From contig CAZFOM010000001.1 of NCBI GenBank assembly GCA_964520155.1, positions 1-33,701 on the forward strand: a DNA stretch of 33,701 nt, given 5' to 3'. The notes under the pieces are model-generated. The model was not told the origin of the DNA. It did no database searches and was given only the letters and a program-made list of their open reading frames with translations. The position numbers and the translations under genes were made by a program. Below are positions 3,173-30,375 of this stretch, piece by piece (position 1 is the first letter of the stretch; each line of letters opens with the position of its first letter). This stretch comes from an uncultured Rickettsiales bacterium. GTDB taxonomy: Bacteria > Pseudomonadota > Alphaproteobacteria > Rickettsiales > JABCZZ01.

Positions 3173-3361
3173 AGCGGGATCTACTCATACTGACTTTGCG
3201 GAGTGGATGCAACACAAGTTGCGCGCCGGACACAGGCAATCATCAAACCAGTTGACGCGCCAGACAAAACGTTATTTATTAATCCTTTAGTAAAGAACAA
3301 TTGCGAGAGTAATCGCTCCCGTAAAGTTTATAACTGTGAGGCGCCTGTGAGTCGAGATAGC

Positions 3362-14504: not shown

Positions 14505-14762
14505 CCTCTCTGCTAGACAGGCATATTCGCTAACGAATTTTTAATGATATCACATGCTTCGAAGTACTCTAAATTTCTATTAATTCCGTGCTGTGATTTT
14601 TTCGCAACAAACGCGACAAGTTAGAAACACAATGCGATGTAGTCCGCAGAATTACTAAGCAATTCCATGGTTAATAATGCGTTAAATTTTATGATTGCAA
14701 TTAATCCGTCGAAAAACACTCGCAGTTACGCACAGCGCAAAACATTTCGATACTTTTTTCAC

Positions 14763-14790
14763 TTGCAATTGCATCATGCGAGCATATTAA
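14763..14790 (+). promoter_or_regulatory. Candidate sigma70-type promoter for the RTX surface-protein gene
   Basis: TTGCAA (14763-14768), a 16-nt spacer, then TATTAA (14785-14790), inside a 371-bp AT-rich intergenic region. It would give a 5' UTR of about 80 nt. Pattern match only. Confidence 0.3.
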
Positions 14791-14875
14791 TGAGTCCCAT
14801 TTCAGGGATGTTTCTAGAAACACTTCCAAAGAATTTGTCTATTAACCAAAGCTAACTAACAAAGAGGTTTTTCAC

Positions 14876-17737
14876 ATGGCTACTTTCAATTTTACCAGCC
14901 TGATCGGTCAGACGATTCCGAATTTTAACGTCGCCGCAGATACGCTGGCTATTCTGGACACGTCTTCTAACGTGCGCCTTACGCAGAATGGTGCAAACCT
15001 GCAGGTGACCACCAGCGCAGGCACCGTCACCATCGCGAACATGACGCTTGCTCAGGCTACCACCTCTAACATTTCTGGTGTTGGCGGACAGATCTTTGTG
15101 GGTGACAACAACACCGGCACCGTGTTCGATGATGTCGGTAACACGATCAACCCAGGCTCCGGCGCCAACCTGATTTACGGTATGGGCGGTGCTGACACCA
15201 TCACGGTGGGTGATGGTAACAACGTGGTATTCGGTGGCACGGGTCTGACCGACACTACGGACGGTGGCGATACCATGACCATCGGCACGGGCGCAAATAC
15301 CATTTATGGTAACGCGGGTAACGATGCTCTTACGCTTACCAACGGTACAGCTGCTGGAAATACCTCGACTGTGTTCCTCGGTCTTGGCGACGATTCTTAC
15401 ACCGCTACCGCCGCACACGCGGGTAACCACAACATTACCGGTGGTTCGGGTGCTGATACCATCAACGTGTTTGGCACGACTGGCGACGTAACCATCATCG
15501 GCGGTATTGCCATCACCGATACGACTGACGGTGCCGACACCGTTACGCTTGGCACGGGAAGCGTTTCCGCATTCCTGAACGCAGGCAACGACAACGTAAC
15601 CGGTGGCGCAACTGCTGCTGGTAAAACGGCAAACCTGAACCTCGGTCTGGGTAACGATACCTACGGTAACGCAACGGCAGTAGCGGGTGCTACCACCGTG
15701 ACCGGCGGTTCTGGCAATGACAACATCACCTTCAACGGTGCTGCAACCGCAGACATCACCATTTTCGGCGGAAACGGTATCACGGACACGACCGATGGTA
15801 ATGATACCATCACCTTGGGTGGTACTTTTGCGGGCAACGCAACCATTTATGGTAACGCAGGTAACGATACGTTTGCGACCATCGCAACCGTTGCTGGCAA
15901 AACCATCACCATCTTTGGTGGTCTGGGCGACGATGCTGTGACTCTTTCCACTCAGGCTGGCGATGATCGCTACACCCTGAACATGGGTACGGGCAACGAT
16001 ACCATCAACGCAAACCTTGGCACCTCTGCCGATGTAACGATCACCGCGATCGAAGCAACCGACATCACCAACGTGACGCTCGGTGGCGGTGCAGGCCGCA
16101 ACGCAGCGGCACTGACCGCTCAGGTTGCCGGCAGCACCATCGTACTGGTAAACGATCGCGGCTCCGATGGTACCTACACCGTGGGCACGGACGAGCGCAT
16201 CACGCTGCTTAACCAGACGGCTTCGCTCACCAATACCAACTTCATCATTACGGACGGTGACGGTAACGCCAGCCGCCTGCTGGTAAACACCACCACGACC
16301 GGCACGACCATGACGGGTAGCGCATTCGGTGACCAGATCATCGGTGGTTCGGGCAACGACACCATCGTCGGTGGTAACACGGCTGCAACTAACAACGACC
16401 GCATCAATGCGGGCGCTGGTGATGACCGCATCCAGTATCTGGCTGCTGCTGCGACCGACCTGCAGAACGACACCGTGGACGGTGGCGACGGTACGGACAC
16501 CTTCGAAGTGACCGATACGAACGCTGCAACCTTTGCCGCAAACGACGTGGCTGCGCTTGTAAACGTGGAAACGCTGCTCCTCAGCAACGCTTCGCACACG
16601 GTTCAGGGCGTGTTCGCTTCGGGTCGTCTCAACACCATCAATGCAACGGCTCTCGCTGGCACCAACACGCTCAGCGTGACGACGGATTCAGGTAGCTCCA
16701 ACAACCTGGTCGTCAACGCAAACAGCAACTCGACTGGTGCTATCACTGTGAACCTGTCCAACCTGACCGGTAACGGTACGGTTACCACGGCAGGCGGTGC
16801 AGACGTGATCACTGCAGGTTCGGGTAACGACAACATCTCGACCGGTGCCGCAGATGACACGATCAACATCGCTGCTGCAAACTTCACCTCTGCTGACACC
16901 ATTGCTGGTGGTCTGGGCACGGGTGATGCGATTGCTCTGTCCTCTGTTTCGGCAGGTGCAGATGCAGTTGTGGATGCTGATTTCAGCAACGTTTCCGGTC
17001 TGGAAACGCTGACCATCTTCAACGGTGCTTCGAATCAGACCTTCACGCTGGGTTCCGCGGCTTCTTCCGCTGGTATCAACAACGTGAACGGCGCGGCTGA
17101 GAACACGGGTACTGAGAACCTGACGATCACTGCAACCGGCATGACCACGGCCGTTACCATCACCGGTGGTTCTGGTAACGACTCCCTCACGGGTGGTGGC
17201 CAGGCAGACAGCATCGATGGCGGTGCGGCTAACGATACCATCATCGGTGGCGCAGGTAACGACACCCTCATCGGTGGCGCAGGTAACGACACCTACGTCA
17301 TGCTCGCAACTGGCGGCGGTGTGGATCAGATCGCAACCGCAAACTGGGTGCAGGCCAACGACCTGTTCGACTTCCGCATCGGTGGCTGGAGCTTTGCTGG
17401 TGGCGTGACCGAAACGGTTTCCGCACAGGCTGCTCTGGGTACGCTCGGCAACAACGGTACGCTCGTGTACACTGCAAACGCAGTGGGCAACGCCAGCGCA
17501 CTGAAAGTGCTGCTCGATGCAGACACCAACTTCGACAATACCAACATTGGTAACCGTGTGGTGGTGTGGGAAATCGATGGTACCAACGTAGGTGTCGGCG
17601 TGATCAACAACGCAGATACCTTGGACAACAACAGCGTGACCGTGACGCAGGTTGCTCAGATCACCGGTCTTGCCAACCAGGCAGCGGTGGACACTCTGAC
17701 CGGTGCTCTCGCAGCTTCCAACTTCGACCTGTTCTAG
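14876..17737 (+). CDS. Large acidic RTX-repeat surface protein (S-layer/RsaA-like T1SS substrate)
   Basis: 953 aa, rich in Thr/Gly/Asn/Asp/Ala, with no Cys and few Lys/Arg. GGxGxD-type repeats run throughout. A canonical five-unit nonapeptide block sits about 145 aa from the C-terminus, and the acidic/hydrophobic C-terminal tail is ...ALAASNFDLF. AAGAGG (14862-14867) lies 8 nt before the ATG, a strong terminator follows the stop, and T1SS genes lie immediately downstream. Confidence 0.85.
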   Translation: MATFNFTSLIGQTIPNFNVAADTLAILDTSSNVRLTQNGANLQVTTSAGTVTIANMTLAQATTSNISGVGGQIFVGDNNTGTVFDDVGNTINPGSGANLIYGMGGADTITVGDGNNVVFGGTGLTDTTDGGDTMTIGTGANTIYGNAGNDALTLTNGTAAGNTSTVFLGLGDDSYTATAAHAGNHNITGGSGADTINVFGTTGDVTIIGGIAITDTTDGADTVTLGTGSVSAFLNAGNDNVTGGATAAGKTANLNLGLGNDTYGNATAVAGATTVTGGSGNDNITFNGAATADITIFGGNGITDTTDGNDTITLGGTFAGNATIYGNAGNDTFATIATVAGKTITIFGGLGDDAVTLSTQAGDDRYTLNMGTGNDTINANLGTSADVTITAIEATDITNVTLGGGAGRNAAALTAQVAGSTIVLVNDRGSDGTYTVGTDERITLLNQTASLTNTNFIITDGDGNASRLLVNTTTTGTTMTGSAFGDQIIGGSGNDTIVGGNTAATNNDRINAGAGDDRIQYLAAAATDLQNDTVDGGDGTDTFEVTDTNAATFAANDVAALVNVETLLLSNASHTVQGVFASGRLNTINATALAGTNTLSVTTDSGSSNNLVVNANSNSTGAITVNLSNLTGNGTVTTAGGADVITAGSGNDNISTGAADDTINIAAANFTSADTIAGGLGTGDAIALSSVSAGADAVVDADFSNVSGLETLTIFNGASNQTFTLGSAASSAGINNVNGAAENTGTENLTITATGMTTAVTITGGSGNDSLTGGGQADSIDGGAANDTIIGGAGNDTLIGGAGNDTYVMLATGGGVDQIATANWVQANDLFDFRIGGWSFAGGVTETVSAQAALGTLGNNGTLVYTANAVGNASALKVLLDADTNFDNTNIGNRVVVWEIDGTNVGVGVINNADTLDNNSVTVTQVAQITGLANQAAVDTLTGALAASNFDLF
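15185..15991 (+). repeat. Three tandem ~89-aa (about 267-nt) protein-level modules inside the RTX gene
   Basis: The motif (L/I)TDTTDGxDT recurs with Thr at residues 125, 214 and 303 (nt 15248, 15515, 15782), exactly 89 residues apart. The flanking segments align: DTI.V......V.I.GG..ITDTTDG.DT.T.G.G.......NAGND......T(A/V)AG.T....LGLG(D/N)D.Y....A.AG.....TGGSG.D. A degenerate fourth start follows. Confidence 0.7.
17165..17299 (+). repeat. Canonical RTX nonapeptide block (5 units)
   Basis: GGSGNDSLT GGGQADSID GGAANDTII GGAGNDTLI GGAGNDTYV (residues 764-808). The last two 27-nt units (17246-17272 and 17273-17299) are identical at 24 of 27 positions. Confidence 0.85.
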
Positions 17738-17760
17738 GCCTGAGTTGAAGTTCCAAAAAC

Positions 17761-17791
17761 GGGGGCGGCCTTCGGGTCGCCCTCTTTTTTT
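17761..17791 (+). terminator. Rho-independent terminator of the RTX gene
   Basis: gggggcggcc (17761-17770), loop ttcg, ggtcgccctc (17775-17784). This is a 10-bp stem (8 Watson-Crick plus 2 G-U pairs) with a TTCG tetraloop, followed by seven T (17785-17791). It starts 24 nt after the stop codon. Confidence 0.85.
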
Positions 17792-17928
17792 GAGCTTCCG
17801 GCGATTAGCCATCGGCTGTCAGCGTTCAAATCTCAATGCTTTTTTGAATTTCAGGAACTTCATTGTAAATCCGCGTCACCTGTCCTATATAGCCGTATCC
17901 ACTTACGTTATTAATCTCTTGTCCGTTC

Positions 17929-19668
17929 ATGAATATCCCTGCCGCGCAGCCGAGTGACACTCTGGTCAAGGAATCCTTCCGCAAGACCAAAAAGGCCTTC
18001 ATCTATATCGGCGTCTTCAGCCTGTGCATGAACATCATGCTGCTTGCTCTGCCGATCTACTCGCTGCAGGTGCTTGACCGCGTCATGTCAAGCCACAGCT
18101 TGAGTACATTGTTCTGGCTGACGGTGGTAATTGTGGGGCTGTTGGTGTTTTACGGTCTCTTTAATGCCATTAAAACCGCGATCTTAAACAAGATGGGCGA
18201 ATGGATGGAACTGAGTGTGGCGCCCGAATTGCTAAGCAACGCCATCACCCGCTCCTCTCTTGCGGTGTTTTCGAGCGGTTCACAGTATTACCGTGACCTT
18301 GGCGCAGTGAAATCCTTTGTCACCGGCGGTGGCGTTGCTACACTGTTCGATGCGCCCTGGGCGATTCTCTTTCTGCTTGTGGTGTATCTGATTAATCCGG
18401 TGCTGGGCTTTGTCACACTGCTCGGCTGCTTCATGCTGCTGGGTCTTGCAGTGCTTACCGAACTAACCACCAAGAAACCGACAGATCTCGCCAGTAAATC
18501 CTCGATCCGAGTGAATACCATCGCTGAAACCGCAACCCGCAATGCGGAGATGATCGAAGCGATGGGGCTGATGCGCAACATTCTGGAAGACTGGAAACAA
18601 CATAATCAGCGCAGTCTTGATCTACAGGCGATCGCAGCCAACCGCTCGAATGTACTCTATTCCACTTCGCGCGTGTTGCGTATGGTGATGCAGGTTGCGA
18701 TCACGGGGATCGGCGCGTGGCTCGCACTCAATAATCAGATGACGATCGGCGGCATGATTGCGTCTTCGATTCTCGCCGCGCGCGCGCTCGCTCCGTTTGA
18801 GTCCGCGATAGGCGTATGGAAAAGCTGGGTGATCGCGCGCGAATCCTATCACCGCCTGGATAAATCCTTCGCGCATGTAAACAGCCTGCGTGGTAATGTG
18901 GATCTGCCGGCACCGCGCGGCATTGTTCAGGTGGATCAACTGATGTACCGTCCGGCCACCTCGGACAAGCCGATCATCAAGGGGGTCTCGTTTGACATTA
19001 AACCCGGGGAATCGGTGGGTATTATTGGCCCGTCCGCGGCTGGTAAATCGACACTTGCCAAGTTACTGATGGGCATTCTGCCGCCTTCGCATGGGACTGT
19101 GCGGCTGGACGGGGCGGATATTTTCAAATGGAACCGCGAGTATCTGGGGCAATATGTGGGCTATATGCCGCAGGATGTGGAGCTGTTTTCGGGCACCATC
19201 AAAGATAATATCGCGCGCATGGATAAACAAGCGCCGATCGAAAAGGTCATCGAGGCCGCGCGCAAAGCACATGTGCACGAAATGATCCTGCAACTGCCGC
19301 GCGGGTATGAGACGGAATACAGCTATGGCAATATCAATCTGTCGCCCGGGCAGCGTCAGCGCATCGGGCTTGCGATCGCGCTGTATGGCAATCCCCGTTA
19401 TGTCGTGCTCGATGAGCCCAACGGTAACCTGGACGGTGAGGGCGAACGCGCACTGGTTCAGACCATGCACTACATCAAATCGCAGGGCATCACGTTGGTG
19501 GTGGTGGCGCACCGCCCATCGATCGTGGGCTTTGTCGATAAAATTCTGGCGCTGCGCGGCGGGCTGATCGAAGCGTTTGGGCCACGCGAGGAAGTACTCA
19601 AACGCTACACGGCACCGCAACAGCCGCCCGCACAGGCGCAACTCGCAGCCGGAGGTGCGGCGGCATGA
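17929..19668 (+). CDS. Type I secretion system ABC exporter (PrtD/AprD/RsaD class, no N-terminal C39/CLD domain)
   Basis: 579 aa. The N-terminal transmembrane domain begins almost at the N-terminus (FIYIGVFSLCMNIMLLALPIYSLQVLDRV, typical of PrtD-type exporters). Walker A GPSAAGKST, signature LSPGQRQR, Walker B VVLDEPN. Confidence 0.9.
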   Translation: MNIPAAQPSDTLVKESFRKTKKAFIYIGVFSLCMNIMLLALPIYSLQVLDRVMSSHSLSTLFWLTVVIVGLLVFYGLFNAIKTAILNKMGEWMELSVAPELLSNAITRSSLAVFSSGSQYYRDLGAVKSFVTGGGVATLFDAPWAILFLLVVYLINPVLGFVTLLGCFMLLGLAVLTELTTKKPTDLASKSSIRVNTIAETATRNAEMIEAMGLMRNILEDWKQHNQRSLDLQAIAANRSNVLYSTSRVLRMVMQVAITGIGAWLALNNQMTIGGMIASSILAARALAPFESAIGVWKSWVIARESYHRLDKSFAHVNSLRGNVDLPAPRGIVQVDQLMYRPATSDKPIIKGVSFDIKPGESVGIIGPSAAGKSTLAKLLMGILPPSHGTVRLDGADIFKWNREYLGQYVGYMPQDVELFSGTIKDNIARMDKQAPIEKVIEAARKAHVHEMILQLPRGYETEYSYGNINLSPGQRQRIGLAIALYGNPRYVVLDEPNGNLDGEGERALVQTMHYIKSQGITLVVVAHRPSIVGFVDKILALRGGLIEAFGPREEVLKRYTAPQQPPAQAQLAAGGAAA

Positions 19669-21068
19669 GCCAGATTCCTGCAACTAAAACCGAATGGATC
19701 CGTTATCTGCGCTCCTACAGCGAGGCGCTCGATCGCTGGTCGGCGATGATTTCGCCCGCGCGGCCTGAATCTTCTGACAAGCCGGAATACAGTGCGCGTA
19801 TGCCTATTCAGGCTGGCCTGTGGATGATTGTGGCCGTGTTTGGCGCGTTTGGTCTGTGGGCGGGGCTTGCGCCATTGGATAGTGCGGCACTGGCGCCTGG
19901 CTATGTGGTGCTCGATTCCAACCGCAAATCCATCCAGCATCTCGAGGGTGGGATCGTAGAAGAAATTCTGGTGCGTGAAGGCTCGCAGGTGAAAGCGGGT
20001 GAGGCACTGGTTCGCCTCAACCCGACGGCGACTGAAGCGCGGCTTGATCTCTTCCGCAATCAGTATTTTGGCAATAAAGCGATTGAAGCACGGCTGTTTG
20101 CAGAGCGCGACGGCAAGGAAAAGATCGAGTTTCCCAAAGAGTTGCTTGATAAAGCTAACGATCCGGTGGTGAAAGAACAGATCGAGAATCAGCAGCAGCA
20201 GTTCAAAACCCGCAGAGACTCTCTCAACAGTCAGTTGGGTATTCTTAGGCAGAAGGCCGAACAATCGAAAAAGGAAATTGAAGGGCTGGAAGCGCAGATC
20301 CGTTCTGCCGACGATCAGATCAAATACCTGAATGAAGAAATCAAAACCGTGCAAATCCTCCTGTCGCAGGGTAACGCACAGAAGCCGAGATTGCTTGCGC
20401 TTCAGCGCAATAGGGCGCAACTCGAAGGGCAGCGGGGTGAGAATAAATCCTCCATCGCACGCGCCGAGCAGATGATCGCCGAATCCGAACTGGCGGTGCA
20501 GAGCCAGATCAACGATTTTCAGACCCGTGTTGCGGCGGAACTCAAGGACACGCAGCTCCAGCTCTCCGATCTTCAAGAGCGGGTGCGTGCCTCCGAAGAT
20601 GTGAAAAGCCGTATCGTGATTACCTCGCCGGTGGATGGGATCGTGACAGGGCTTGCGGTGCATACGGTAGGCGGTGTGATCAATCCGGGCGGGCGGATCA
20701 TGGATATTGTGCCGCTGGGGGATAAACTCATTGTGGAAGCGCGCGTGAATCCTCAAGATATTGATGTGGTGCACAAAGGCTTAACCGCGCAGGTGCGCCT
20801 GACGGCGTTCAAATCGCGCACGGTACCACCCGTGAAGGGCACGGTGGAAAATATATCGCCGGATCGTTTTACCGACGAACGCACGGGAATTTCCTATTTT
20901 GTAGCGCGGGTCGAGATACAGCAAAAAGAGCTGGACGCGCTGAAGGATGTCGAACTTTCCGCAGGGATGCCCGCCGATGTCATGATTCTCACCGGATCTC
21001 GCACCTTGCTTGGCTATATCCTAAGCCCGATTGGTGAGTCGTTCCATCAGGCCTTCCGCGAACAGTGA
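19665..21068 (+). CDS. Type I secretion membrane fusion protein (HlyD/AprE/RsaE family)
   Basis: ATGA overlap with the ABC gene (19665-19668). It has a single N-terminal TM helix (LWMIVAVFGAFGLWAGLAPL), a long coiled-coil middle, and a C-terminal block GMPADVMILTGSRTLLGYILSPI typical of HlyD-family adaptors. Confidence 0.9.
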   Translation: MSQIPATKTEWIRYLRSYSEALDRWSAMISPARPESSDKPEYSARMPIQAGLWMIVAVFGAFGLWAGLAPLDSAALAPGYVVLDSNRKSIQHLEGGIVEEILVREGSQVKAGEALVRLNPTATEARLDLFRNQYFGNKAIEARLFAERDGKEKIEFPKELLDKANDPVVKEQIENQQQQFKTRRDSLNSQLGILRQKAEQSKKEIEGLEAQIRSADDQIKYLNEEIKTVQILLSQGNAQKPRLLALQRNRAQLEGQRGENKSSIARAEQMIAESELAVQSQINDFQTRVAAELKDTQLQLSDLQERVRASEDVKSRIVITSPVDGIVTGLAVHTVGGVINPGGRIMDIVPLGDKLIVEARVNPQDIDVVHKGLTAQVRLTAFKSRTVPPVKGTVENISPDRFTDERTGISYFVARVEIQQKELDALKDVELSAGMPADVMILTGSRTLLGYILSPIGESFHQAFREQ

Positions 21069-21791
21069 TTAGCGTTTCAGCCCCAACGCTTTCCACCGAT
21101 ACGGCGGGCGGTCGAGTTCGTCGAGCTGGCCGCTTGTGCCGGTGGGTTGCGGCGGGACAAATTTATCAAAGAGCACAATTTTGTCGTTACGCACGATCGT
21201 GCTTGTCGCTCCAATTTTATAGGCCAATCCCCATAGTAACCATTCTTCGCGCTTGATTTCGATATTGCTGAACCCTGCGGCTTTGAAAGCCTTTCCGAGC
21301 GTGGCGGTGGTGAATATGGTGCGTGATTCCACACCCATCCGCATACTTCCATAGAGCAGTTCTAACGGGCTGAGCGTGGCGCCGCCTGGCAGGCGCGCCA
21401 GCGGTTCATCGAGCGCGCGTCCTTCCCACAGATACTTGGCAATCGTCTGCACCTCCACGGTGTTAAGCAGTATCATTCCATCATCGCGCAATACCCGAGG
21501 GATTTGCTTTAACACCTCTACGACTTCCGTAGCGTTGAGGGATTGCAGGCGCTGCGAAAACCAAACAGCCTCGACGCAGGCATTTGGCAAAAGTGCCAGC
21601 GTGTCAAATCCGCCCAGTATATCTGGCGCATTTGCGTGCTGGGGATCTACGCGAATTTCCTCCCACGCATCCGCTGTAAATTGAACATGCAGGCGTTTTT
21701 CCCGCGCCGCACCTGAAAACAGATGCAGTACGCGCTTCTTATCCGATGCCGTCGAGAACCGTTTCATCTGTGCAGACGTGAGTTTTTTCAT
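21069..21791 (-). CDS. Methyltransferase-fold protein with an atypical SAM motif I
   Basis: The pattern RVLHLFSGAA...EIRVDP....PDILGGFDTLALLPNACVEAVWFSQRLQSL...VLKQIPRVLRDDGMILLNT resembles Methyltransf_11/23-type enzymes from LPS loci. The usual GxGxG is replaced by FSGAA. There is a 4-nt ATGA overlap with the upstream GT4 gene, and its stop abuts the HlyD stop (21068/21069). Confidence 0.5.
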   Translation of the reverse strand: MKKLTSAQMKRFSTASDKKRVLHLFSGAAREKRLHVQFTADAWEEIRVDPQHANAPDILGGFDTLALLPNACVEAVWFSQRLQSLNATEVVEVLKQIPRVLRDDGMILLNTVEVQTIAKYLWEGRALDEPLARLPGGATLSPLELLYGSMRMGVESRTIFTTATLGKAFKAAGFSNIEIKREEWLLWGLAYKIGATSTIVRNDKIVLFDKFVPPQPTGTSGQLDELDRPPYRWKALGLKR

Positions 21792-23047
21792 GCGGCCCTG
21801 CGTGCGAGTTGCGCGTGGGTGGAGGGCGGGATCTGCCCGCTTGCCAGCTCCCGAATCAACGCCAGATGATGCGGTAGCACCACGCTCAGATCGTAACGCT
21901 CCAGTATCGTCTGCCGCGCTGCTTTACGCATGGATTGGTATTGCTCGGGGTTTCGCACCGCATGAAGAACTTTTTCCGCTAATTCCTGCGGTGAGAAGAA
22001 ATCCACCAGCACGCCGTTTTTCCCATCCGAGATGACTTCCTCCACGGGTGGGGTGCGCGAGGCGACCATCAGGCATTCGCAGGCCATGGCTTCCATCATC
22101 GACCAGGACAGCACGAACGGATACGTTAGATAGATATGCGCGGCCGAAACTTGCATGATCTTGAGCATTTCGCGGTAAGGCAGCGGAGCAACGAAATGCA
22201 ATCTCCGAAGATCCGGTTTCAATTCTTCCGTAAACATCTTGCGATATGTCGTGCCCGTTGGTGGGGTGCGTCCGTAGCTCACCTCATCCGCACCAACGGC
22301 AATCACATGCACGTCCGGATCCATCTCTTGCAGTCGCTTCACCGCTTTCATGAACGTTGGAAAGCCCCGATAATGCTCAAAATTCCGTGCGACATAGGTC
22401 ACCACCGGATCCCCTTGTTTGAAGCTGATCCCGTCGGGCATCTGAATGCGAACATTGGGATTCGGTGCCGCAACCGTTGCGTCTATTCCATCGTGAAGGA
22501 CACTCATTTTACTGTGAAACAGGGACGGGTATTGACGAAGTTGCCACTCGGTCGGCGTAATACCCCAGTCACAAGCCTCAAGCGCCAGCAGATTGACGCT
22601 GTTTTTTACCCGCAGCCGTGCTTTGTCGTCTTCTGTTATGGGGTGCTCAAACCCCATATCCGATCCCGCGGTGCGGTAATAAAACTCAAAAAAGTTCAAC
22701 AATTTGGTGTCTGGAAAAATATCTTTAACAAACAACGAATCGCCCCATCCCGGGTGCGCGCATATTACATCAGGTATAAACCCTTCCGTATCGCGTAATG
22801 CCTTGAGCATCCGCCAAGTTTCCTGACCCTGGAGCACGGAGCGTTCAGTGCCGGTCAGGTAGCGATGCGTGTATTGTGAAGGTTCACGAAACACCTCGTA
22901 TTCCAACTTGGTCACACCTTCGATGGTTGGAGCTTTAGCGTTGACCTTACTCAGAAACACCACCTGATTGTTAGGATCTTGTGCAAGGGTGCTGCATAAA
23001 TGTTTATATTGTCCCGGGAAATTCGGGTGCATGAAGAGGATTTTCAT
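21788..23047 (-). CDS. GT4-family (GT-B fold) glycosyltransferase
   Basis: C-terminal EX7E-type block SWSMMEAMACECLMVASRTPPVEEVISDGKNGVLVDFFSPQELAEKV. The probable start is ATG 23047 (MKILFMHPNFPGQY...). The listed ORF begins at an upstream GTG (23092). Confidence 0.8.
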   Translation of the reverse strand: MKILFMHPNFPGQYKHLCSTLAQDPNNQVVFLSKVNAKAPTIEGVTKLEYEVFREPSQYTHRYLTGTERSVLQGQETWRMLKALRDTEGFIPDVICAHPGWGDSLFVKDIFPDTKLLNFFEFYYRTAGSDMGFEHPITEDDKARLRVKNSVNLLALEACDWGITPTEWQLRQYPSLFHSKMSVLHDGIDATVAAPNPNVRIQMPDGISFKQGDPVVTYVARNFEHYRGFPTFMKAVKRLQEMDPDVHVIAVGADEVSYGRTPPTGTTYRKMFTEELKPDLRRLHFVAPLPYREMLKIMQVSAAHIYLTYPFVLSWSMMEAMACECLMVASRTPPVEEVISDGKNGVLVDFFSPQELAEKVLHAVRNPEQYQSMRKAARQTILERYDLSVVLPHHLALIRELASGQIPPSTHAQLARRAA

Positions 23048-23156
23048 AGGCCAGACCGCTATCGAAGCCGCAGTTTTATCGCCTAAATTCACGATTTACA
23101 ATATCTTAATACATTCCCATTTATAGTAGGAGCATTAGCACATCAGGGAGGATTTC

Positions 23157-24755
23157 ATGTGTGTCTTGTGCGCTCAGCGTTCACTGGCAAATGGGCAGTT
23201 TTCTGGCCATGTCGAGATGAATTTTGCCACCCTTACTCCCACGCTCACACCAACCACTCCCACCGGCACCAGCACAACAACTGCCGCGGTTGCGACGTTA
23301 CTCGAAACATTTAACTGGAATGGGACGATCGGCACAGCTGCCATGGTACCTTATTCCTTTGGTCTCAGCTTTGAAGGCGGCACACTGTTCAACGCGACCG
23401 AGCGCACTGCGGCACTCAGCGCCATGCAGCAATGGGCAAACGTCGCCAATATCAATTTTCAGTCCGTGACCAATAGCAGCGCCAAACTCGCATTCTCAAA
23501 AACCACGTTCGGCCCCGATCTTGCCGGACTGACCACCACGTTTTTCAGCGGCACGCGGATTGCGCAATCCGAAGTGCAGATTGATTCCACCGTTACCAGC
23601 TTTGGCAATGGCACGTTCGGACATCTCGTCATGCTGCATGAGATTGGCCATGCACTCGGTCTCAAACACCCGGGCGCTTACGGCCCATCAGATACTGGGC
23701 CATACCTGACCAGCGCCGAGGATACGATCCAGAACACGGTCATGTCGTATAACGACAGCGCGCTGGTTAACGCATCGAACTATCCGGTGACGCCCATGAT
23801 CTACGATATTGCCGCCATGCAATATCTGTATGGCGCCAATATGGCCTTCAATGCCGGTGATTCGAACTACACATTTAATGGCAGCACCACGGCACAAACC
23901 CTGTGGGACGGCGGTGGGTTTGATACGATTCAGGTTGCGGGCTTTACTGGCAACACCACGATTGATCTCAACTCCGGCATCAACAACGCCACCTCCATTG
24001 GTGGCGCACGGATCTGGATTGCATTTAATGCCAACATCGAAAACGCGATTGGCAACAACGGCAACGACCGCATTACTGGCAATGCGCTGGGTAACCATCT
24101 GTATGGCTCCGGCGGGCTGGATACGATTAATGGCGGTGCAGGGAACGATCTGATCTTCGGCGGTAACGGCGTGACGGATCCCACCGACGCCTCGGATCTG
24201 ATCTTCGGCGGATCGGGTGTGGATGAAATTTATGGTAATGGCGGCAATGATACGATTTACGGCGGTGCCAGCGAAACGGATGGATCGGACGCGGCCGACC
24301 TGGTTTACGGCGGTCTGGGTGTTGATTTCATTGCCGGAAATGCCGGAAACGATACGATTTACGGCGGAGGCAGCACCACGGATCCATTCGATCAGGGAGA
24401 TACGATTTTCGGCGGGCTGGGTAACGATCTGATCTACGGCAATGGCGGCGGCGACCAGATTTTTGGCAGTGTTGGAAACGATACGATGCACGGTGGCCTG
24501 GGAGATGACCAATACCGTATCAGTTCCGGCGAGGGGCAGGATCTGATTTTATTCTTTGAAGGCGCGGGTGTTGCCGGTGGGGATGTGATCGTCCTGTCGT
24601 CCAATATCAACGGAATCGGTGTTGGCAGTGGCGCAGGGATGATTCCACAGATCAGTTACGGAAGCGGCAATGCCCTGATCAATCTCGGGGGCGGGAATAA
24701 CCTCACCGTGTTTGGCGTGACTAGCTTTACCGCCGACGATTTCGCTTTTGTATAG
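23157..24755 (+). CDS. Serralysin-type (metzincin M10B-like) zinc metalloprotease with a C-terminal RTX domain
   Basis: AGGGAGGA (23145-23152) precedes ATG 23157. Zinc motif HEIGHALGLKH at 23637-23669, and the Met-turn with Tyr is TVMSY. RTX-type repeats span about 24051-24515 (GGAGNDLIFGG, GNGGNDTIYGG, GNAGNDTIYGG, GGLGNDLIYGNGGGDQIFG). The C-terminus FTADDFAFV resembles the acidic-hydrophobic T1SS tails of secreted proteases. Confidence 0.85.
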   Translation: MCVLCAQRSLANGQFSGHVEMNFATLTPTLTPTTPTGTSTTTAAVATLLETFNWNGTIGTAAMVPYSFGLSFEGGTLFNATERTAALSAMQQWANVANINFQSVTNSSAKLAFSKTTFGPDLAGLTTTFFSGTRIAQSEVQIDSTVTSFGNGTFGHLVMLHEIGHALGLKHPGAYGPSDTGPYLTSAEDTIQNTVMSYNDSALVNASNYPVTPMIYDIAAMQYLYGANMAFNAGDSNYTFNGSTTAQTLWDGGGFDTIQVAGFTGNTTIDLNSGINNATSIGGARIWIAFNANIENAIGNNGNDRITGNALGNHLYGSGGLDTINGGAGNDLIFGGNGVTDPTDASDLIFGGSGVDEIYGNGGNDTIYGGASETDGSDAADLVYGGLGVDFIAGNAGNDTIYGGGSTTDPFDQGDTIFGGLGNDLIYGNGGGDQIFGSVGNDTMHGGLGDDQYRISSGEGQDLILFFEGAGVAGGDVIVLSSNINGIGVGSGAGMIPQISYGSGNALINLGGGNNLTVFGVTSFTADDFAFV

Positions 24756-24766
24756 TCAGAGGTATC

Positions 24767-25801
24767 CTACTTAACAGCTTCCGGCGCCTGAACGATCACG
24801 CCTGTCCAGCCCAGCCCGTCATATTCCTGATAACCAAGGGTTCTCGCGAAGGCAATCACGGTGCCATCCTCGAGTTTGTAATAGCCCTTTTTCTGCCCTG
24901 AGGTCTGAAGCGCGAAAGGCTCAAGCAGATTTTTCCCGTCGGATGCCGCGATAATACGTTGTTTGGCATCGAGCAGCAACACACGCGTGCGCTTCCATTC
25001 TTCCTGCGACAGATTGGGTTCGTCCTGCACAATGGAGCGCGACTGTTCCTGCCAGTCAAAAAATACCCCGAGCACTCCAAGTGATTCTCCCTGTAGATCG
25101 CCGCCGCGACGTACCGCTGCAGAATAGACTGCCACCGGACGATTGTGATGCAAGCTGCAATTGAATATATCATCGACCACATACTCGTCGCCACGCGCGG
25201 TATTCATCGCACCTTTGAACCAGTAGGTGCTACTGACATCCGCCCCGAGCGAGGCAGGAAATTTCGACGGTTCGGAGACGGCAATCACGCGACCGGACTT
25301 ATCCGCGAGCAACAGATTGATATACACCGAGTAGAACCGGTTGATGATGCCCAGACGCTTGATCGCATGGGTGGCGCTTTCGGTGGAGATTTTCTCCAGG
25401 CAGCTATACATCGCCTCATCCGTTGCCCACCACCGCACATCGGCCGTGCGCTCATAGAGGTTGCGCACGATCAGCTGCACCAGTGTTTGTGCCATTTCGC
25501 TCAAACGACCATACTCGCGCACTTCAAACTGCTCGGCGAGTGCCATGGTCTGCGATTGGATTTTACTAAAGATTGTGGTGCGAAATTCCTTGGAATTGGT
25601 GGCTGCCTGTGTGGCCAGTGACTTCACTTCGGAGGCTACTACCGCAAAGCCTTTGCCGTATTCACCGGCGCGCGCTGCCTCAATCGTTGCGTTCAGCGCC
25701 AGCAAATTGGTGTGGCTCGCGATGGTTTCGTTGCTCTTTGCAAATTTCTGCACTTCATCCTGAATCGTATGGATGATGGACTGAATCTGCTGACTCGACA
25801 T
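24767..25801 (-). CDS. Soluble protein: minimal MCP signalling-tip segment fused to a C-terminal Cache-like sensor domain
   Basis: The N-terminal ~95 aa contain the MCP hairpin-tip signature [33 protein letters not shown]. The rest ([16 protein letters not shown]...[16 protein letters not shown]...STYWFKGA...VAVYSAAV...GVLGVFFDW...[16 protein letters not shown]) has the helix plus beta-sheet pattern of Cache/PAS-like ligand-binding domains. No TM segment is present. AAGGAA lies 6 nt before the ATG. Confidence 0.7.
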
Positions 25802-25912: not shown

Positions 25913-27286
25913 TTAGTGGTGGATTTTTTCGCCATGCATGGCCATGTCCAGACCCTGCGCTTCGGTGTTTTCATCCACACGCAGCCCCATGATTCCATCA
26001 ATGAGTTTCAGCAGGATAAAGCTCACGACACCAGCATAGACCAGCGTGACCACCACACCTTCAATCTGTGCCAGCACCTGTGCCATGCTGCCGGTTTCAA
26101 GCAGGCCGCCCACGCCGCCAATTGCGGATACGGCAAACACGCCGGTCAGGATCGCACCCGCGATACCGCCGACACAGTGAATACCAAATACATCCAGCGT
26201 ATCGTCGTAGCCAAATCGGTATTTGAGTTGCGACCCGTAGAAGCACAACGCACCGGCGATGAAACCGATTGCCATCGCGCCACCCACACCGACAAAGCCG
26301 GAAGCGGGTGTAATCGCCACGAGTCCAGCCACGGCGCCGGAAATCAGACCCAGTACAGTGGGCTTTTTAACGGTCAACCACTCGACAATCATCCAGCTCA
26401 ATCCCGCACAGGCGGTGGCCACATGCGTCACCAGCATGGCCATACCCGCGCGCTCACCAGAAGCAACTGCTGAACCGGCATTGAATCCGAACCAGCCCAC
26501 CCACAGAAGCGATGCGCCGATCAGCGAGAACGCGATATTGTAGGGAGGTGTATTCTTGCGGCGCTTATCGAAATCATGCCCTTTACGAATGAGCAGGGCA
26601 GCCATCAGGCCAGCGATACCGGCGTTGATATGCACCACCGTGCCGCCGGCAAAATCCAACGGTACGCCAAAACCCAGCAGACCTTTATTATCAGGATTGT
26701 TGACGCTGCTGAGCAACCCACCAGGCCCCCAGACCCAGTGGGCAATTGGCGCATAAACAAGAGTCATGAACAAACCGGCAAACACCAGCATCGAAGAAAA
26801 CTTGATGCGTGTCGCCACCGCGCCCATGATGAGTGCTGTTGTGATGATCGCAAACGTCATCTGGAAGAAAACAAAGACGGTTTCTGGAATAGTGCCGCTC
26901 AGCGTGGACATTTCCATACCGTTTAAGAAGAAGCGGCTGGTTCCGCCGATAAATGCTGAGCCTTCGGTAAAGGCGAGTGAGTAACCATAGGCTACCCACA
27001 GCACCGAGATCAGACAGCATATGCTGAAACTTTGGGTGAGTACCGCAAGCACGGAGCCTCGCTGTACCATGCCGGCATAAAACAGAGCCAGCCCTGGGAT
27101 CGTCATCATCAGCACGAGTAGGGTGGATACCATCATCCAGGCGGTATCAGCGCCGTTTGCGGTTGGTGTTGGCGCGGCGTCCTGAGCAATGCCTGCGATT
27201 GGCAGCGCCACAGACATCAGTGTAAGGGCGCAAAGCGCCAGTGTTCTTTGCAAGAGGTTCGCCCCTGTTTTGTTGTTGTTTTTCAT
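25913..27286 (-). CDS. amtB: Ammonium transporter (Amt family)
   Basis: Signal-like N-terminus, conserved blocks DFAGGTVVHINAGIAGLMAALL and DVFGIHCVGGIAGAILTG, and 11 TM-type helices. AAGGAG is better spaced for ATG 27286 than for the listed ATG 27292. Confidence 0.9.
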   Translation of the reverse strand: MKNNNKTGANLLQRTLALCALTLMSVALPIAGIAQDAAPTPTANGADTAWMMVSTLLVLMMTIPGLALFYAGMVQRGSVLAVLTQSFSICCLISVLWVAYGYSLAFTEGSAFIGGTSRFFLNGMEMSTLSGTIPETVFVFFQMTFAIITTALIMGAVATRIKFSSMLVFAGLFMTLVYAPIAHWVWGPGGLLSSVNNPDNKGLLGFGVPLDFAGGTVVHINAGIAGLMAALLIRKGHDFDKRRKNTPPYNIAFSLIGASLLWVGWFGFNAGSAVASGERAGMAMLVTHVATACAGLSWMIVEWLTVKKPTVLGLISGAVAGLVAITPASGFVGVGGAMAIGFIAGALCFYGSQLKYRFGYDDTLDVFGIHCVGGIAGAILTGVFAVSAIGGVGGLLETGSMAQVLAQIEGVVVTLVYAGVVSFILLKLIDGIMGLRVDENTEAQGLDMAMHGEKIHH

Positions 27287-27489
27287 TAGCATATCTCCTT
27301 ATTGGGTTAAGCGAGTGAATGCCAACGATTATTCCAGACGGTTTTTATTATTTTAATGTGTTGGCCGATCACTAACACACCGCACCGGCTTTGTCAAAAT
27401 GACATGCCCTAAAGAGGGAAATAGAGTAAGCGGCTCTAATTCCTTCTATTATTCGTGCAATTTCTTTTGATGTGGCTATAGTGCGCCGC

Positions 27490-28146
27490 ATGAAAAAACG
27501 CGACGCAAACTTTCTGTGGCTGATTCTGCTTTCCCTATGGTTTGCCTGTATTGCAAGCGATGCTTCTGCCGAACGTATTTCCTATTTTGTCAATCACGAG
27601 ACCCGCTACGATAACCTTTCCAATTTTCCGAAATGGAATGGTGTATTGTCGCGTTATTTCGAAAAATCCGACATCATGAATCAGCCATGCGGAAGCGCGC
27701 GATTTAACCCCTGCAAATTAAAGGAATGGCAAGATTTTCTGGATACTCAGCAAGGCAAACCGCTGCGTGAACAGCTGGTGGCCGTCAATGCCTACATTAA
27801 CAAAAGTCCATATATACTGGATATTGATAACTGGGGACTGAATGATTATTGGGCAACACCCTACGAGTTTCAGGATCGCAGCGGCGATTGCGAAGATTAC
27901 GCGATTGCGAAATTCATCTCTTTGCGGGCACTCGGCGTTTCAAACGACCTCATGCGCGTGATTATCGTACAGGATTTCAATCTGGGCGGCATTATTCACG
28001 CCGTACTGATTGTATTCGTGGACGGCAAGGTCTTGGTGCTCGACAATCAGGCGCAGGAAGTGAAGAGCGCGCTCGATATCTACCACTACAAGCCCATTTA
28101 CTCGATCAATGAAACCCATTGGTGGAAACATATCCCGATTCAGTAA
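27490..28146 (+). CDS. Periplasmic transglutaminase-like cysteine proteinase (BTLCP, LapG family)
   Basis: From ATG 27490 there is a classic signal peptide, MKKRDANFLWLILLSLWFACIASDASA. The C/H/D triad contexts are RSGDCEDYAIAKF, GIIHAVLIV and VLVLDNQ, as in the BTLCP/DUF920 family. The listed ORF starts at an upstream GTG (27472). Confidence 0.8.
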   Translation: MKKRDANFLWLILLSLWFACIASDASAERISYFVNHETRYDNLSNFPKWNGVLSRYFEKSDIMNQPCGSARFNPCKLKEWQDFLDTQQGKPLREQLVAVNAYINKSPYILDIDNWGLNDYWATPYEFQDRSGDCEDYAIAKFISLRALGVSNDLMRVIIVQDFNLGGIIHAVLIVFVDGKVLVLDNQAQEVKSALDIYHYKPIYSINETHWWKHIPIQ

Positions 28147-28239
28147 CCCTATGACACACGTATCCCGATCTTTATCAACAGAGGGTTGTAAACCCCACCC
28201 CATCACGATAGTATCCTTTATCCATCAGGAGAGATTCTC

Positions 28240-30375
28240 ATGACCGACGCATCCCGAATCATCACCGACACCGTGCGTGAATCCGGCGCCAAACGCACAA
28301 TCAGCGCGGCGCATCTGGTGCTGGTGCTCATTATGCTGGCGCTTGCAAGCCTCGTACTGATTTCACGCTTTTCGGGTGCGGAATTGCAGCGCGAGGTCAA
28401 TAACTGGCAGGTGCGCCTTAATCTGATTGCGGATAGCCGCGTGCGCGACGTGAATCAGTGGTTATCTTCGCAGTTTGGCGAATTACAGGCGCTTGCAGAC
28501 AATGCCTCTTTGCAGCTCTATGTGACGGAACTGGAAACCAATCCGCAGGTGGCACAGGCCGAATCACCGGCAGAGCGCAGTTACCTGCGCAACCTCCTGC
28601 TCTTTACTGCACAGAAAGCCGGATATGGTACCGCCCAAAGCGACCCCATTAACCAGATCCCTGCCAACGTCAATCGCGCAGGCCTGGGAGGCATTGCGGT
28701 GATAGACAATACGGGTAAAGTGCTCGTGGCTACTCCGGAAATGCCCGCTGTGGAAGGTGCGCTGCTACAGAAATTACAGGCACAGGAATTTGGAAAATCC
28801 GCGATTTTAGATCTGGAGCGCAATCCAAACGGCCAACTGACGATCGGCTTCGTCGTGCCCGTGTTTGCCATTCAGGGCGATCGTGATGCAAACTCGCAGA
28901 TCGGAAGAGTCGTGGGCATCCGCACGGTGGGAGAGGATCTGTTTGGCCGCCTCATCCATCCAGGTGTAACAGAAAAAACGCTCGAAAACCTGCTCGTGAA
29001 AGCCGACGGAGAAAATGTCGTTAATCTCTCCCCGCTCAAGGATGGAAGCAAGCCGCTTGAGAAGCCGATCAAATCTACTACGGAGGTGGATGTCACTTAC
29101 GCCGTTTCCAACCCGGGAAACTTCTCGGAAGCCAAGGGTATTTCGGGGCGTGAGGTGCTCATGACCAGCCGCACGGTCAGCGGCGCACCGTGGGTGCTGC
29201 TCACGCGCATCGACCGCAAGGAAGCGCTGCGCGATGGGAATCTCTGGCGTACTCGCATGACGACGATTCTGGCATTGATGCTGGCGCTCATGATCGCCAT
29301 CATCGGCGCGGCCTGGTGGTATGGCACCTCGCGCCGTGCCATGCAGTTGTCGCTGCGCAGCAATCAGCTCGCCGCGCAATACGCCCAGCAGGAGAAACTC
29401 CTGCGGCTCGTGACAGACAACCAGCCCGAACCGATTTTCATAACGGATCGTTTCAGCAAAGTGTGGTTTGTCAATGATAGGGCTGCGCGTACGTTCAAAG
29501 CACCGGCGAGCGAACTGATCGGCAAGGAACTGCCCCATGTGATGGGGCCTGCTACTGCGCAAGATTATATGGAAGCGAATAAATCGGCGCTTGAAATGGA
29601 TAAGGCGGTGTCGCGCACCAGTCGTCAGTATGAGGAAAATGAACTGCGCATCATCCGTTCCGAACATATTCCTCTGAGCCATATCCCAATTGAAACACTG
29701 CCCTATCCGACTGCTGGCGTGCTTGTCGTGGATCAGGATATCACCGAAGCGGTGATTGAACGTGAGAAGCGTTCAGACACCTTGAAGCAGATCGTGGATA
29801 CGCTCGTGAAAATGATGGATCAGCGTGATCCTCACGCGGCGAATCACTCGGCACTGGTGGCGATGATTGCGCGCGAAATGGCCGAAGAAATGGGGCTTGA
29901 TACGCGCACCGTCGAAACAACAGAAACAGCGGGCAACCTGATGAATATCGGTAAAATTGTCGTTCCGAGTGAAGTGCTCACCAAATCCGTGGCATTAAAC
30001 GAGAACGAGCTCAGTGCCGTGCGTCGCTCGCTGAAACAGAGTGCGGATGTACTGCGCGGTATCGTGTTCGACGGGCCGGTGGTGGAAACCCTGGAGCAGG
30101 CACAAGAACATTGGGACGGCACGGGGCCTGGCGGACTTAAGGGCGACAGTATTCTGGTCTCCGCACGCATCATCGCGGTGGCGAATGCCTTCGTCGGTAT
30201 GGTCAGCTCGCGCTCCTACCGCGCCGCGCTGCCGGTCGAGCAGGTTCTTAAAGCCATGCTCGATCAGATCGAAACACGGTTTGATCGCCGCGCAGTGGTC
30301 GCACTCATCAACTACATCGAAAACAAGGGTGGTCGGGCGGAGTTATCGAAGCTCACGCTGGGCAAAGCGGCTTAG
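28240..30375 (+). CDS. Membrane signalling protein: TM, periplasmic double-Cache-like domain, TM, PAS, degenerate HD-GYP domain
   Basis: AGGAGAG (28227-28233) precedes the ATG. TM1 is LVLVLIMLALASLVLI, followed by about 290 aa outside with a Cache-like pattern, then TM2 ILALMLALMIAIIGAAWWY. A PAS-like segment follows (PEPIFITDRFSKVWFVNDRAARTF...). The HD-GYP-like domain has HD replaced by MN (LMNIGK, nt 29941-29946) and GYP replaced by GPG (EHWDGTGPGG, nt 30124-30132). Confidence 0.75.
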   Translation: MTDASRIITDTVRESGAKRTISAAHLVLVLIMLALASLVLISRFSGAELQREVNNWQVRLNLIADSRVRDVNQWLSSQFGELQALADNASLQLYVTELETNPQVAQAESPAERSYLRNLLLFTAQKAGYGTAQSDPINQIPANVNRAGLGGIAVIDNTGKVLVATPEMPAVEGALLQKLQAQEFGKSAILDLERNPNGQLTIGFVVPVFAIQGDRDANSQIGRVVGIRTVGEDLFGRLIHPGVTEKTLENLLVKADGENVVNLSPLKDGSKPLEKPIKSTTEVDVTYAVSNPGNFSEAKGISGREVLMTSRTVSGAPWVLLTRIDRKEALRDGNLWRTRMTTILALMLALMIAIIGAAWWYGTSRRAMQLSLRSNQLAAQYAQQEKLLRLVTDNQPEPIFITDRFSKVWFVNDRAARTFKAPASELIGKELPHVMGPATAQDYMEANKSALEMDKAVSRTSRQYEENELRIIRSEHIPLSHIPIETLPYPTAGVLVVDQDITEAVIEREKRSDTLKQIVDTLVKMMDQRDPHAANHSALVAMIAREMAEEMGLDTRTVETTETAGNLMNIGKIVVPSEVLTKSVALNENELSAVRRSLKQSADVLRGIVFDGPVVETLEQAQEHWDGTGPGGLKGDSILVSARIIAVANAFVGMVSSRSYRAALPVEQVLKAMLDQIETRFDRRAVVALINYIENKGGRAELSKLTLGKAA

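Follow-up and report, generated by a model that had tools for sequence, protein, structure and literature searches.

We analyzed a window of 33,701 nucleotides (contig CAZFOM010000001.1, positions 1 to 33,701 of the forward strand; assembly GCA_964520155.1) from an uncultured Rickettsiales bacterium. In this window, a gene for a LapG-family periplasmic cysteine protease (27490-28146) is followed by a gene for a membrane receptor with a degenerate HD-GYP domain (28240-30375). The two genes probably constitute an alphaproteobacterial DvhG/DvhD system, a functional analogue of LapG/LapD. A sequence-only reading of this DNA had proposed an inside-out switch that combines a degenerate HD-GYP domain with a Cache domain. 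That proposal was right in substance, by homology to DvhG/DvhD, but its view that the combination was uncharacterized is out of date, as DvhD (DVU1020) and DvhG (DVU1019) of Desulfovibrio (Nitratidesulfovibrio) vulgaris Hildenborough have been published (PMC10990149; PMC13090378). A LapD-like switch on a degenerate HD-GYP domain is thus already known as DvhG/DvhD, and the pair in the window, though real, is not new.

Karbelkar et al. (PNAS 2024) reported that dvhD adjoins the gene for the LapG-like protease DvhG and that DvhD controls DvhG in a reconstituted system (PMC10990149). DvhD binds cyclic di-GMP (c-di-GMP) with a dissociation constant (Kd) of about 0.1-0.3 μM and does not hydrolyze it with any metal; 3'3'-cyclic GMP-AMP (3'3'-cGAMP) is also bound, with a Kd of about 0.5 μM (PMC13090378). 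Crystal structures cover all three soluble modules of DvhD (PDB 9RBZ, 9RC0, and 9RC2; Font et al., Nat Commun 2026, PMC13090378). The same study defined a canonical and a bridging c-di-GMP site, proposed inside-out signaling via splaying of the stalk helices, and assigned the DvhG-binding surface predicted by AlphaFold 3 (AF3) to helix alpha1' of the dCache domain (PMC13090378).

The two open reading frames (ORFs) lie on the + strand, 93 bp apart, and the strings quoted in the sequence-only reading (SGDCEDYAIAKF, GIIHAVLIV, VLVLDNQ, HSALVA, LMNIGK, AQEHWDGTGPGG, and VANAFVGM) are all present in their translations. The features of the pair, including the transmembrane (TM) segments and the domains placed with AlphaFold2 (AF2) and Foldseek, are as follows.

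27490..28146, + strand: DvhG/LapG-family periplasmic cysteine protease (BTLCP, Peptidase_C93), 218 aa, ATG start; Pfam and LapG structure matches
27490..27570, + strand: Sec signal peptide predicted for the protease, MKKRDANFLWLILLSLWFACIASDASA, with cleavage after ASA; sequence reading and hydropathy
27886..27897, + strand: D133-C134-E135-D136, the catalytic Cys between calcium-site acidic residues; aligned to GDCEDYAIAK of LapG 4U65/4FGO
27997..27999, + strand: catalytic His170 (IIHAVL); aligned to the LapG His
28042..28044, + strand: catalytic Asp185 (VLDNQ); aligned to the LapG Asp
28147..28239, + strand: spacer of 93 bp between the two genes, which contains an AGGAGAG ribosome-binding site and lacks a terminator-like hairpin on the + strand
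28240..30375, + strand: DvhD-type receptor, 711 aa, with TM1, dCache, TM2, PAS, stalk, and degenerate HD-GYP
28303..28368, + strand: receptor TM1, about residues 22-43; hydropathy segment 17-49, mean 2.81
28369..29250, + strand: dCache domain of the receptor in the periplasm, residues 44-337, its N-terminal helix broken (alpha1/alpha1'); AF2 and Foldseek
29251..29325, + strand: receptor TM2, about residues 338-362; hydropathy segment 337-364
29386..29754, + strand: receptor cytoplasmic PAS domain, about residues 383-505; Pfam PAS_4 393-481, PAS 388-460
29803..30288, + strand: degenerate HD-GYP domain of the receptor, residues 522-683; Pfam HD_5

The protease ORF matched Pfam PF06035 (Peptidase_C93/BTLCP) with an E value of 3.1e-18 (66.5 bits against a gathering cutoff of 27), and phmmer aligned it with LapG of P. 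fluorescens (4U65, E = 1.4e-22) and of L. pneumophila (4FGO, E = 2.1e-18). Translation from a GTG at 27472 instead would lengthen the protein by six residues, to 224 aa. The signal peptide was read from the sequence pattern and from Kyte-Doolittle hydropathy: a hydrophobic segment spans residues 5-27, and the basic and hydrophobic N terminus with its ASA/E cleavage pattern is signal-peptide-like. Together, these matches uphold the earlier assignment of a LapG-family protease with a signal peptide. Among 49 paired proteases of relatives, the catalytic Cys is kept in 45, the His in 45, the Asp in 47, and Asp133 in 47, so that the triad and the D-C-E-D motif are retained in 45-47 of 49. In DvhG, residues D316, C317, and E318 are essential (PMC10990149; PMC13090378). 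Judged by its sequence, the protease appears to be a secreted, catalytically competent BTLCP.

As for the receptor, Pfam identified HD_5 (E = 2.1e-32, residues 522-683) and PAS_4/PAS (388-481), and hydropathy placed strong hydrophobic segments at two positions, residues 17-49 and residues 337-364. The dCache_1 profile matched between these segments at a subthreshold score, 24.9 bits against 45. The AF2 model of residues 44-337 had a mean predicted local distance difference test score of 86.4 and a predicted TM-score of 0.82, and its N-terminal helix is split into 2-43 and 46-57, as described for DvhD. When this model was compared with the PDB using Foldseek, the top match was 9RC2 (E = 4.9e-11, target-normalized TM-score 0.74, 17% identity); the next-best dCache domain, at 1.9e-7, was about 4 logs behind. 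The TM-Cache-TM-PAS-HD-GYP layout of the sequence-only reading is therefore supported by Pfam, hydropathy, and the AF2 model, with dCache_1 itself below threshold. For the C-terminal domain, the best PDB sequence matches were 9RBZ and 9RC0, entered as 'HD domain/sensory box protein', and not active phosphodiesterases. The receptor matched DvhD's HD-GYP domain (9RBZ) with E = 4.6e-36 in phmmer, and the motif set of 9RBZ/9RC0 is similarly degenerate. A profile of 31 receptor homologues matched 9RC0, the PAS/HD-GYP part of DvhD, with E = 3.4e-66 over positions 386-709, covering both domains, and BLASTP of the crystallized DvhD fragment against the receptor gave 32.7% identity over 330 aa (E = 1.7e-43). 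DvhD is thus the best PDB match of the receptor by sequence and by fold. Sequence comparison and structural modeling together show that the receptor has the full DvhD architecture and is homologous to DvhD module by module.

Conservation in the periplasmic domain is highest in helical stretches, namely WQVRLNLIADSR (residues 56-67), LADNASLQLYVT (85-96, at the alpha1/alpha1' junction), and YLRNLLLFTAQK (115-126); helix 85-100 reads LADNASLQLYVTEL. These helices match the HD-GYP domain in conservation, and the two PAS-like lobes are more variable. The conservation peak thus lies on alpha1/alpha1' and the next helix, not on the ligand-pocket lobes, which fits docking of a protein or transmission of a signal better than binding of a small molecule in a conserved pocket. 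Its position on alpha1/alpha1' also fits the published AF3 interface on alpha1' (PMC13090378).

HMMER alignments to solved HD-GYP structures located each catalytic motif in the receptor. The HD dyad is replaced by M568-N569 and the HH dyad by A621-Q622, the Tyr of GYP is deleted, which leaves G629-P630, and the Asp of the D..D helix is N649. These alignments reproduced the by-eye alignment and the ligand loss of the sequence-only reading. Whether the HD and GYP residues might after all be intact was looked at in the same way, and they are lost. N569 is invariant, and neither HD nor HH occurs in any of 120 homologues (identity down to 40%); the degenerate residues are therefore not chance decay. 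As aligned, the receptor would be unable to coordinate the metals that an HD-GYP phosphodiesterase needs. Source annotations of these receptors read 'HD-GYP domain-containing protein (c-di-GMP phosphodiesterase class II)', 'HD domain-containing phosphohydrolase', or 'PAS domain S-box protein'; because the metal ligands are lost in all family members, annotation as a phosphodiesterase is a systematic misannotation.

To compare the nucleotide sites, the DvhD numbering offset was verified on all twelve residues named in the paper and then mapped to the receptor and the 120 homologues; ligand-site conservation was repeated over 123 representatives. Eight canonical-site positions were compared (Y523, L577, K582, Y621, M646, R650, Y652, and E668 in DvhD numbering, which is also used for the homologues below). 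The receptor keeps L586, M654, R658, Y660, and R661 at the canonical site and P576 at the bridging site; DvhD K520 corresponds to R529, and the peripheral R569 is replaced by E. Over the 120 homologues, R650 and R653 are invariant, M646 is kept in 117 and L577 in 111, and the Y652 position is aromatic or His in all. At the bridging site, 119/120 have Arg in place of K520 and 94/120 retain P567. Mutation of R650, R653, M646, L577, Y652, K520, or P567 impaired c-di-GMP stabilization or dimerization of DvhD (PMC13090378), and every mutationally validated c-di-GMP position of DvhD is kept in the receptor. By these patterns, the retained c-di-GMP-contact residues of the canonical and bridging sites are under strong purifying selection.

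Conservation of the gene pair, on which the sequence-only reading had also staked its proposal, was then surveyed. The GTDB species set contained 503 genomic relatives, from which the best 80 loci were taken with 10-kb flanks. A BTLCP gene lies within 10 kb of the receptor gene in 70 of these 80 loci; in 35 loci it sits directly upstream in the same orientation, the arrangement seen in the window, and most others are directly upstream and divergent. When the ORFs of the 80 loci were clustered for conserved neighbors of the pair, only housekeeping genes emerged. Thus, the protease and receptor genes form a conserved pair, which in this clade is a stand-alone two-gene module. The spacer without a terminator-like hairpin is consistent with cotranscription; promoter and terminator scans gave signals at chance level.

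A motif census distinguished three groups. Canonical enzymes carry HD, HH, and GYP; the relatives nearest DvhD carry SQ, MN, and GYP in all 39 top matches; and the family of the window receptor carries [M/L]N, [A/W/S/C]x, and G-P or GxP, with Tyr at the GYP position in 0/120. A profile search with the periplasmic domain alone returned 312 clusters (50% identity) at E ≤ 1e-30, nearly all about 700 aa long with the domain at the same position. Every full-length representative has a degenerate HD-GYP domain, and none has the HD dyad. Two proteins with the same periplasmic domain, P0375 (1074 aa) and P0382 (941 aa), are 230-360 residues above the norm and may carry extra domains. The related genomes are metagenome-assembled genomes (MAGs) labeled Alphaproteobacteria, Rickettsiales, Rhodospirillaceae, and Dongiaceae, together with cultured Dongia and Virgifigura, and TypA of the window is 77-80% identical to proteins of such alphaproteobacterial MAGs. 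The [M/L]N, Tyr-less subtype is therefore alphaproteobacterial. In the published DvhD ortholog list, about twenty alphaproteobacterial species appear, from genera that include Sneathiella, Kiloniella, Fodinicurvata, Pelagibius, Oceanibacterium, and Denitrobaculum (PMC10990149; PMC13090378). One Sneathiellales MAG among the sampled relatives carries the window-type motif. The lineage thus falls within the published DvhD distribution; subtype differences are not discussed in the accessible portions of the published text (PMC10990149; PMC13090378).

Taken module by module, the pair shares with DvhDG the gene adjacency and a BTLCP protease with a C-H-D triad and calcium motif. The receptor shares with DvhD the order TM, dCache with broken alpha1, TM, PAS, stalk, and HD-GYP without metal ligands, as well as L577, M646, R650, Y652, R653, and bridging P567 and K520 (as Arg). 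It differs in its degenerate signature ([M/L]N, AQ, and G-P versus SQ, MN, and GYP in DvhD) and in the absence of the DvhD contacts Y621 and K582. The window protease has a plain signal peptide, whereas DvhG has a TM anchor and a 180-aa linker; most DvhG orthologues carry signal peptides (PMC13090378). Unlike DvhDG, this pair adjoins no adhesin or LapB-type type I secretion system (T1SS) operon, and its host is an alphaproteobacterium rather than a sulfate reducer. With LapD/LapG of Pseudomonas fluorescens, which has orthologues in Legionella, Bordetella, Vibrio, and Shewanella, the pair shares a homologous protease and the same logic, in which c-di-GMP controls, from the inside out, a periplasmic BTLCP protease whose action releases a T1SS adhesin. 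However, in contrast to LapG proper, the window protease scored 97.5 bits against the NCBIfam LapG equivalog NF045674, far below its curated cutoff of 320. Membership of the receptor in the LapD family was considered and rejected, since Pfam found no LapD_MoxY_N, HAMP, GGDEF, or EAL domain at E ≤ 0.1. The docking of a LapD Trp into a pocket is reported to be absent from the Dvh type (PMC10990149; PMC13090378).

We consider it likely that the pair operates as a DvhDG-type switch, in which c-di-GMP governs the inside-out restraint of a periplasmic protease, and this protease releases a surface protein anchored by a T1SS. Nucleotide binding, conformational relay, protease inhibition, and substrate class are all taken here from published DvhDG. 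By this analogy, at high cytoplasmic c-di-GMP the HD-GYP dimer would bind the nucleotide and the stalk helices would splay. From the stalk, the change would travel via the PAS domain and the TM helices into the dCache domain, where the conserved alpha1/alpha1' helices would hold or inhibit the protease. Once c-di-GMP falls, the protease would be freed and would cut at a di-alanine site that follows the periplasmic retention module of a surface protein anchored by its T1SS; this surface protein would thereby be released from the cell.

Several observations weigh against this interpretation. The periplasmic domains of the receptor and DvhD are only 17% identical, and sequence and profile searches of this domain against the PDB did not reach 9RC2, which was found by fold search only. 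The BLASTP comparison with DvhD was made on the 320-aa crystallized fragment, whereas published orthologs were defined by BLASTP against full-length DvhD (coverage of 85% or more, E ≤ 1e-50); with the fragment as query, the matches are partial relatives at ≤59% identity. At the nucleotide site, Y621 is deleted and K582 is replaced by L591, so that two of the eight canonical-site contacts, both touching the phosphodiester, are lost; in addition, Y523 is H532 and E668 is Q676. With these four changes, affinity or ligand preference may differ from those of DvhD. Furthermore, no LapA-type substrate, no LssB/LapB-type T1SS, and no recognizable protein with [T/A/P]AAG after an N-terminal retention module was found in the window or beside the pair in relatives.

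The altered contacts bear most directly on a reading that keeps the architecture and the protease control but gives the [M/L]N, Tyr-less subtype another signal, either a nucleotide such as 3'3'-cGAMP or pGpG or no nucleotide, the dCache domain responding to a cue in the periplasm. The loss of the phosphate-contacting Y621 and K582, the former in 120/120 family members, and a signature cleanly apart from the SQ/MN/GYP type speak for it, as does the affinity of DvhD itself for 3'3'-cGAMP (PMC13090378). However, the residues R650, Y652/R653, M646, P567, and K520, relevant to c-di-GMP by mutagenesis, are conserved, the guanine-clamping pair L577/Y652 is kept, and conservation in the periplasmic domain is lowest in the dCache pocket lobes, so we regard a different signal as unlikely. 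By extension, because two phosphate contacts of DvhD are lost, the subtype (at least 312 clusters at 50% identity, 503 loci) could represent a functionally distinct class that binds another nucleotide, or c-di-GMP in a new pose, and, as a stand-alone two-gene module with no LapA-type adhesin encoded in cis, gates proteolysis of another sort of surface protein. This is a tentative idea that we also think improbable; if true, such a class might gate, e.g., an S-layer-like RTX protein exported by a PrtD-type T1SS. Still less compatible with the data is an ordinary outside-in sensor, in which the dCache domain binds a small molecule, the degenerate HD-GYP domain serves as a protein-interaction output, and the protease is functionally unrelated. 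Degenerate HD-GYP proteins with regulatory, nonenzymatic roles do exist, such as PA2572 of P. aeruginosa, and Bd1817 (3TM8; weak profile match, E = 4.5e-5) has an HD-GYP fold without catalytic residues and is presumed regulatory; unlike the receptor, these are soluble or response-regulator proteins, without a periplasmic dCache domain and not paired with a protease. Moreover, dCache domains are usually ligand sensors (PMC13090378). Yet the protease accompanies the receptor in 70/80 genomes where all other neighbors vary, homology to DvhD spans every module, and the nucleotide-site residues are conserved, all of which makes the outside-in sensor very improbable. The strong HD_5 match would suit an active phosphodiesterase, and the receptor indeed shares fold and nucleotide-binding face with the active enzymes PmGH (4MCW, E = 3.6e-17), V-cGAP3 (5Z7C, E = 4.2e-22), and PA4781 (4R8Z, E = 2.9e-08). 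In contrast to these enzymes, all catalytic metal-ligand motifs are replaced, namely the HD dyad, the HH dyad, the GYP Tyr, and the helix Asp, and DvhD, with more of the motif left, hydrolyzes nothing with any metal (PMC13090378). Enzymatic activity is thus exceedingly improbable.

The remaining alternative concerns the substrate. The sequence-only reading had hinted at a link to a T1SS and an RTX protein about 10 kb upstream. These genes, which include ATP-binding cassette (ABC) transporters and a membrane fusion protein (MFP), lie in a surface-layer-like gene cluster at 11679-24755.

11679-12518 and 12502-13812: Wzm/Wzt O-antigen-type ABC-2 transporter genes
13635-14504: methyltransferase
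14876-17737: 953-aa T/A/G/N-rich RTX protein (RTX953)
17929-19668: T1SS ABC gene, PrtD-type
19665-21068: HlyD MFP gene of the T1SS
21069-21791, - strand: 240-aa protein without a Pfam match
21788-23092, - strand: GT4 glycosyltransferase
23157-24755: RTX serralysin (weak NCBIfam SapA match, 107 bits)

If the protease acted on neighboring T1SS cargo, RTX953 or the serralysin would be the released surface protein. The T1SS ABC/MFP pair lies 6.4 kb upstream of the protease-receptor pair, TAAG occurs at residues 158 and 246 of RTX953 and TAAV at residue 42 of the serralysin, and linkage to the serralysin persists down to 64% identity. In the published neighborhood survey, T1SS and GT4 genes are often near DvhDG (PMC10990149; PMC13090378). 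On the other hand, the ABC protein is of the PrtD type (TIGR01842, 671 bits against a cutoff of 510) and falls below the cutoff of the LssB/LapB-type model (TIGR03375, 357 bits against 693). RTX953 passes from a short N-terminal segment directly into glycine-rich repeats; its TAAG sites occupy equivalent positions of the repeat unit, with 1.16 expected by composition, and no recognizable retention module, helix, or DP motif precedes either of them. In the serralysin, only about 40 residues lie ahead of the site. Linkage is not conserved either: T1SS genes were found within 10 kb of the receptor in 1/80 related loci and a homologue of RTX953 in 0/80. The neighborhood of the 83%-identity relative is the same as that of the window, the 70% and 64% relatives have TadE-like genes and a large protein without a Pfam domain in place of the T1SS/RTX953 genes, and in the 54% relative (L086) only the ammonium transporter (Amt), protease, and receptor genes remain. 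The hinted link is therefore weak, and we consider it rather unlikely that the neighboring cargo is the substrate. RTX953 and its T1SS were rejected as a conserved partner on the grounds of the PrtD-type ABC protein, the missing retention module, and the unconserved linkage; the T1SS of the window is most likely a bystander unrelated to the pair. For the DvhDG-type switch, the gene for the protease substrate probably lies elsewhere in the genome. In relatives, the large ORFs close to the receptor encode, by sequence, carbamoyl-phosphate synthase, PAS histidine kinases, two-partner-secretion (TPS)-type hemagglutinin-like proteins, and an AsmA-like protein; none qualifies as a LapA-like adhesin.

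Other features of the window and of the related loci were recorded as well. The T1SS/RTX genes, with the serralysin nearby, sit among the Wzm/Wzt, methyltransferase, and GT4 genes, and no TolC gene was found in the window. This cluster resembles Caulobacter RsaA/RsaD/RsaE/Sap S-layer or protease-type T1SS loci more than Lap loci. An Rfam scan for riboswitches, such as c-di-GMP riboswitches upstream of RTX genes, found none. Two antisense ORFs on the - strand, at 14852-16597 (581 aa) and 16688-17812 (374 aa), overlap the RTX953 gene, lack Pfam matches, and are most likely artifacts of the repetitive GC-rich coding strand. At the position of the T1SS cluster, the 70% and 64% relatives (L084 1-3533 and L085 1-2975, - strand) carry two TadE-like genes and a very large protein of >1135 and >1404 aa, respectively, cut by the locus end and without a Pfam domain, which could be a surface protein and a candidate protease substrate. 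In two further loci (L012 14667-17621 and L014 14281-17187), a TPS hemagglutinin-like protein of roughly 970 aa, a different class of surface protein near the pair, is encoded 2-2.5 kb downstream of the receptor.

A 344-aa protein at 24767-25801 (- strand) has a partial methyl-accepting chemotaxis protein (MCP) signaling domain at its N terminus (residues 10-92), ahead of a Cache-like region (99-249), whereas chemoreceptors usually have the opposite order; its gene is kept beside the Amt, protease, and receptor genes in relatives L081-L085 (64-83% identity). Nutrient-status genes surround the locus, comprising an OmpR-type response regulator (3203-4087), a PhoX alkaline phosphatase (4175-6073), a GlnD uridylyltransferase (7805-10525, - strand), and the ammonium transporter (25913-27292, - strand). 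The last lies directly upstream of the protease, and the Amt-protease-receptor order persists to 54% identity (L086). The ORFs at 210-869 (219 aa) and 1802-2611 (269 aa), both on the + strand, have no Pfam or NCBIfam match.

Since concept, mechanism, and structures have already been published, the pair opens no new question. For annotation, the receptors of this family are to be read as noncatalytic and protease-paired. The subtype lacks the GYP Tyr, has an [M/L]N dyad, and varies at the K582 position; these differences offer a natural comparison for testing which contacts of DvhD are essential. Altogether, our data suggest that the DvhDG solution to c-di-GMP-controlled adhesin release, with a dead HD-GYP and a dCache domain where LapD has GGDEF-EAL and a LapD/MoxY domain, occurs widely among free-living, mostly uncultured Alphaproteobacteria and is not confined to sulfate reducers.

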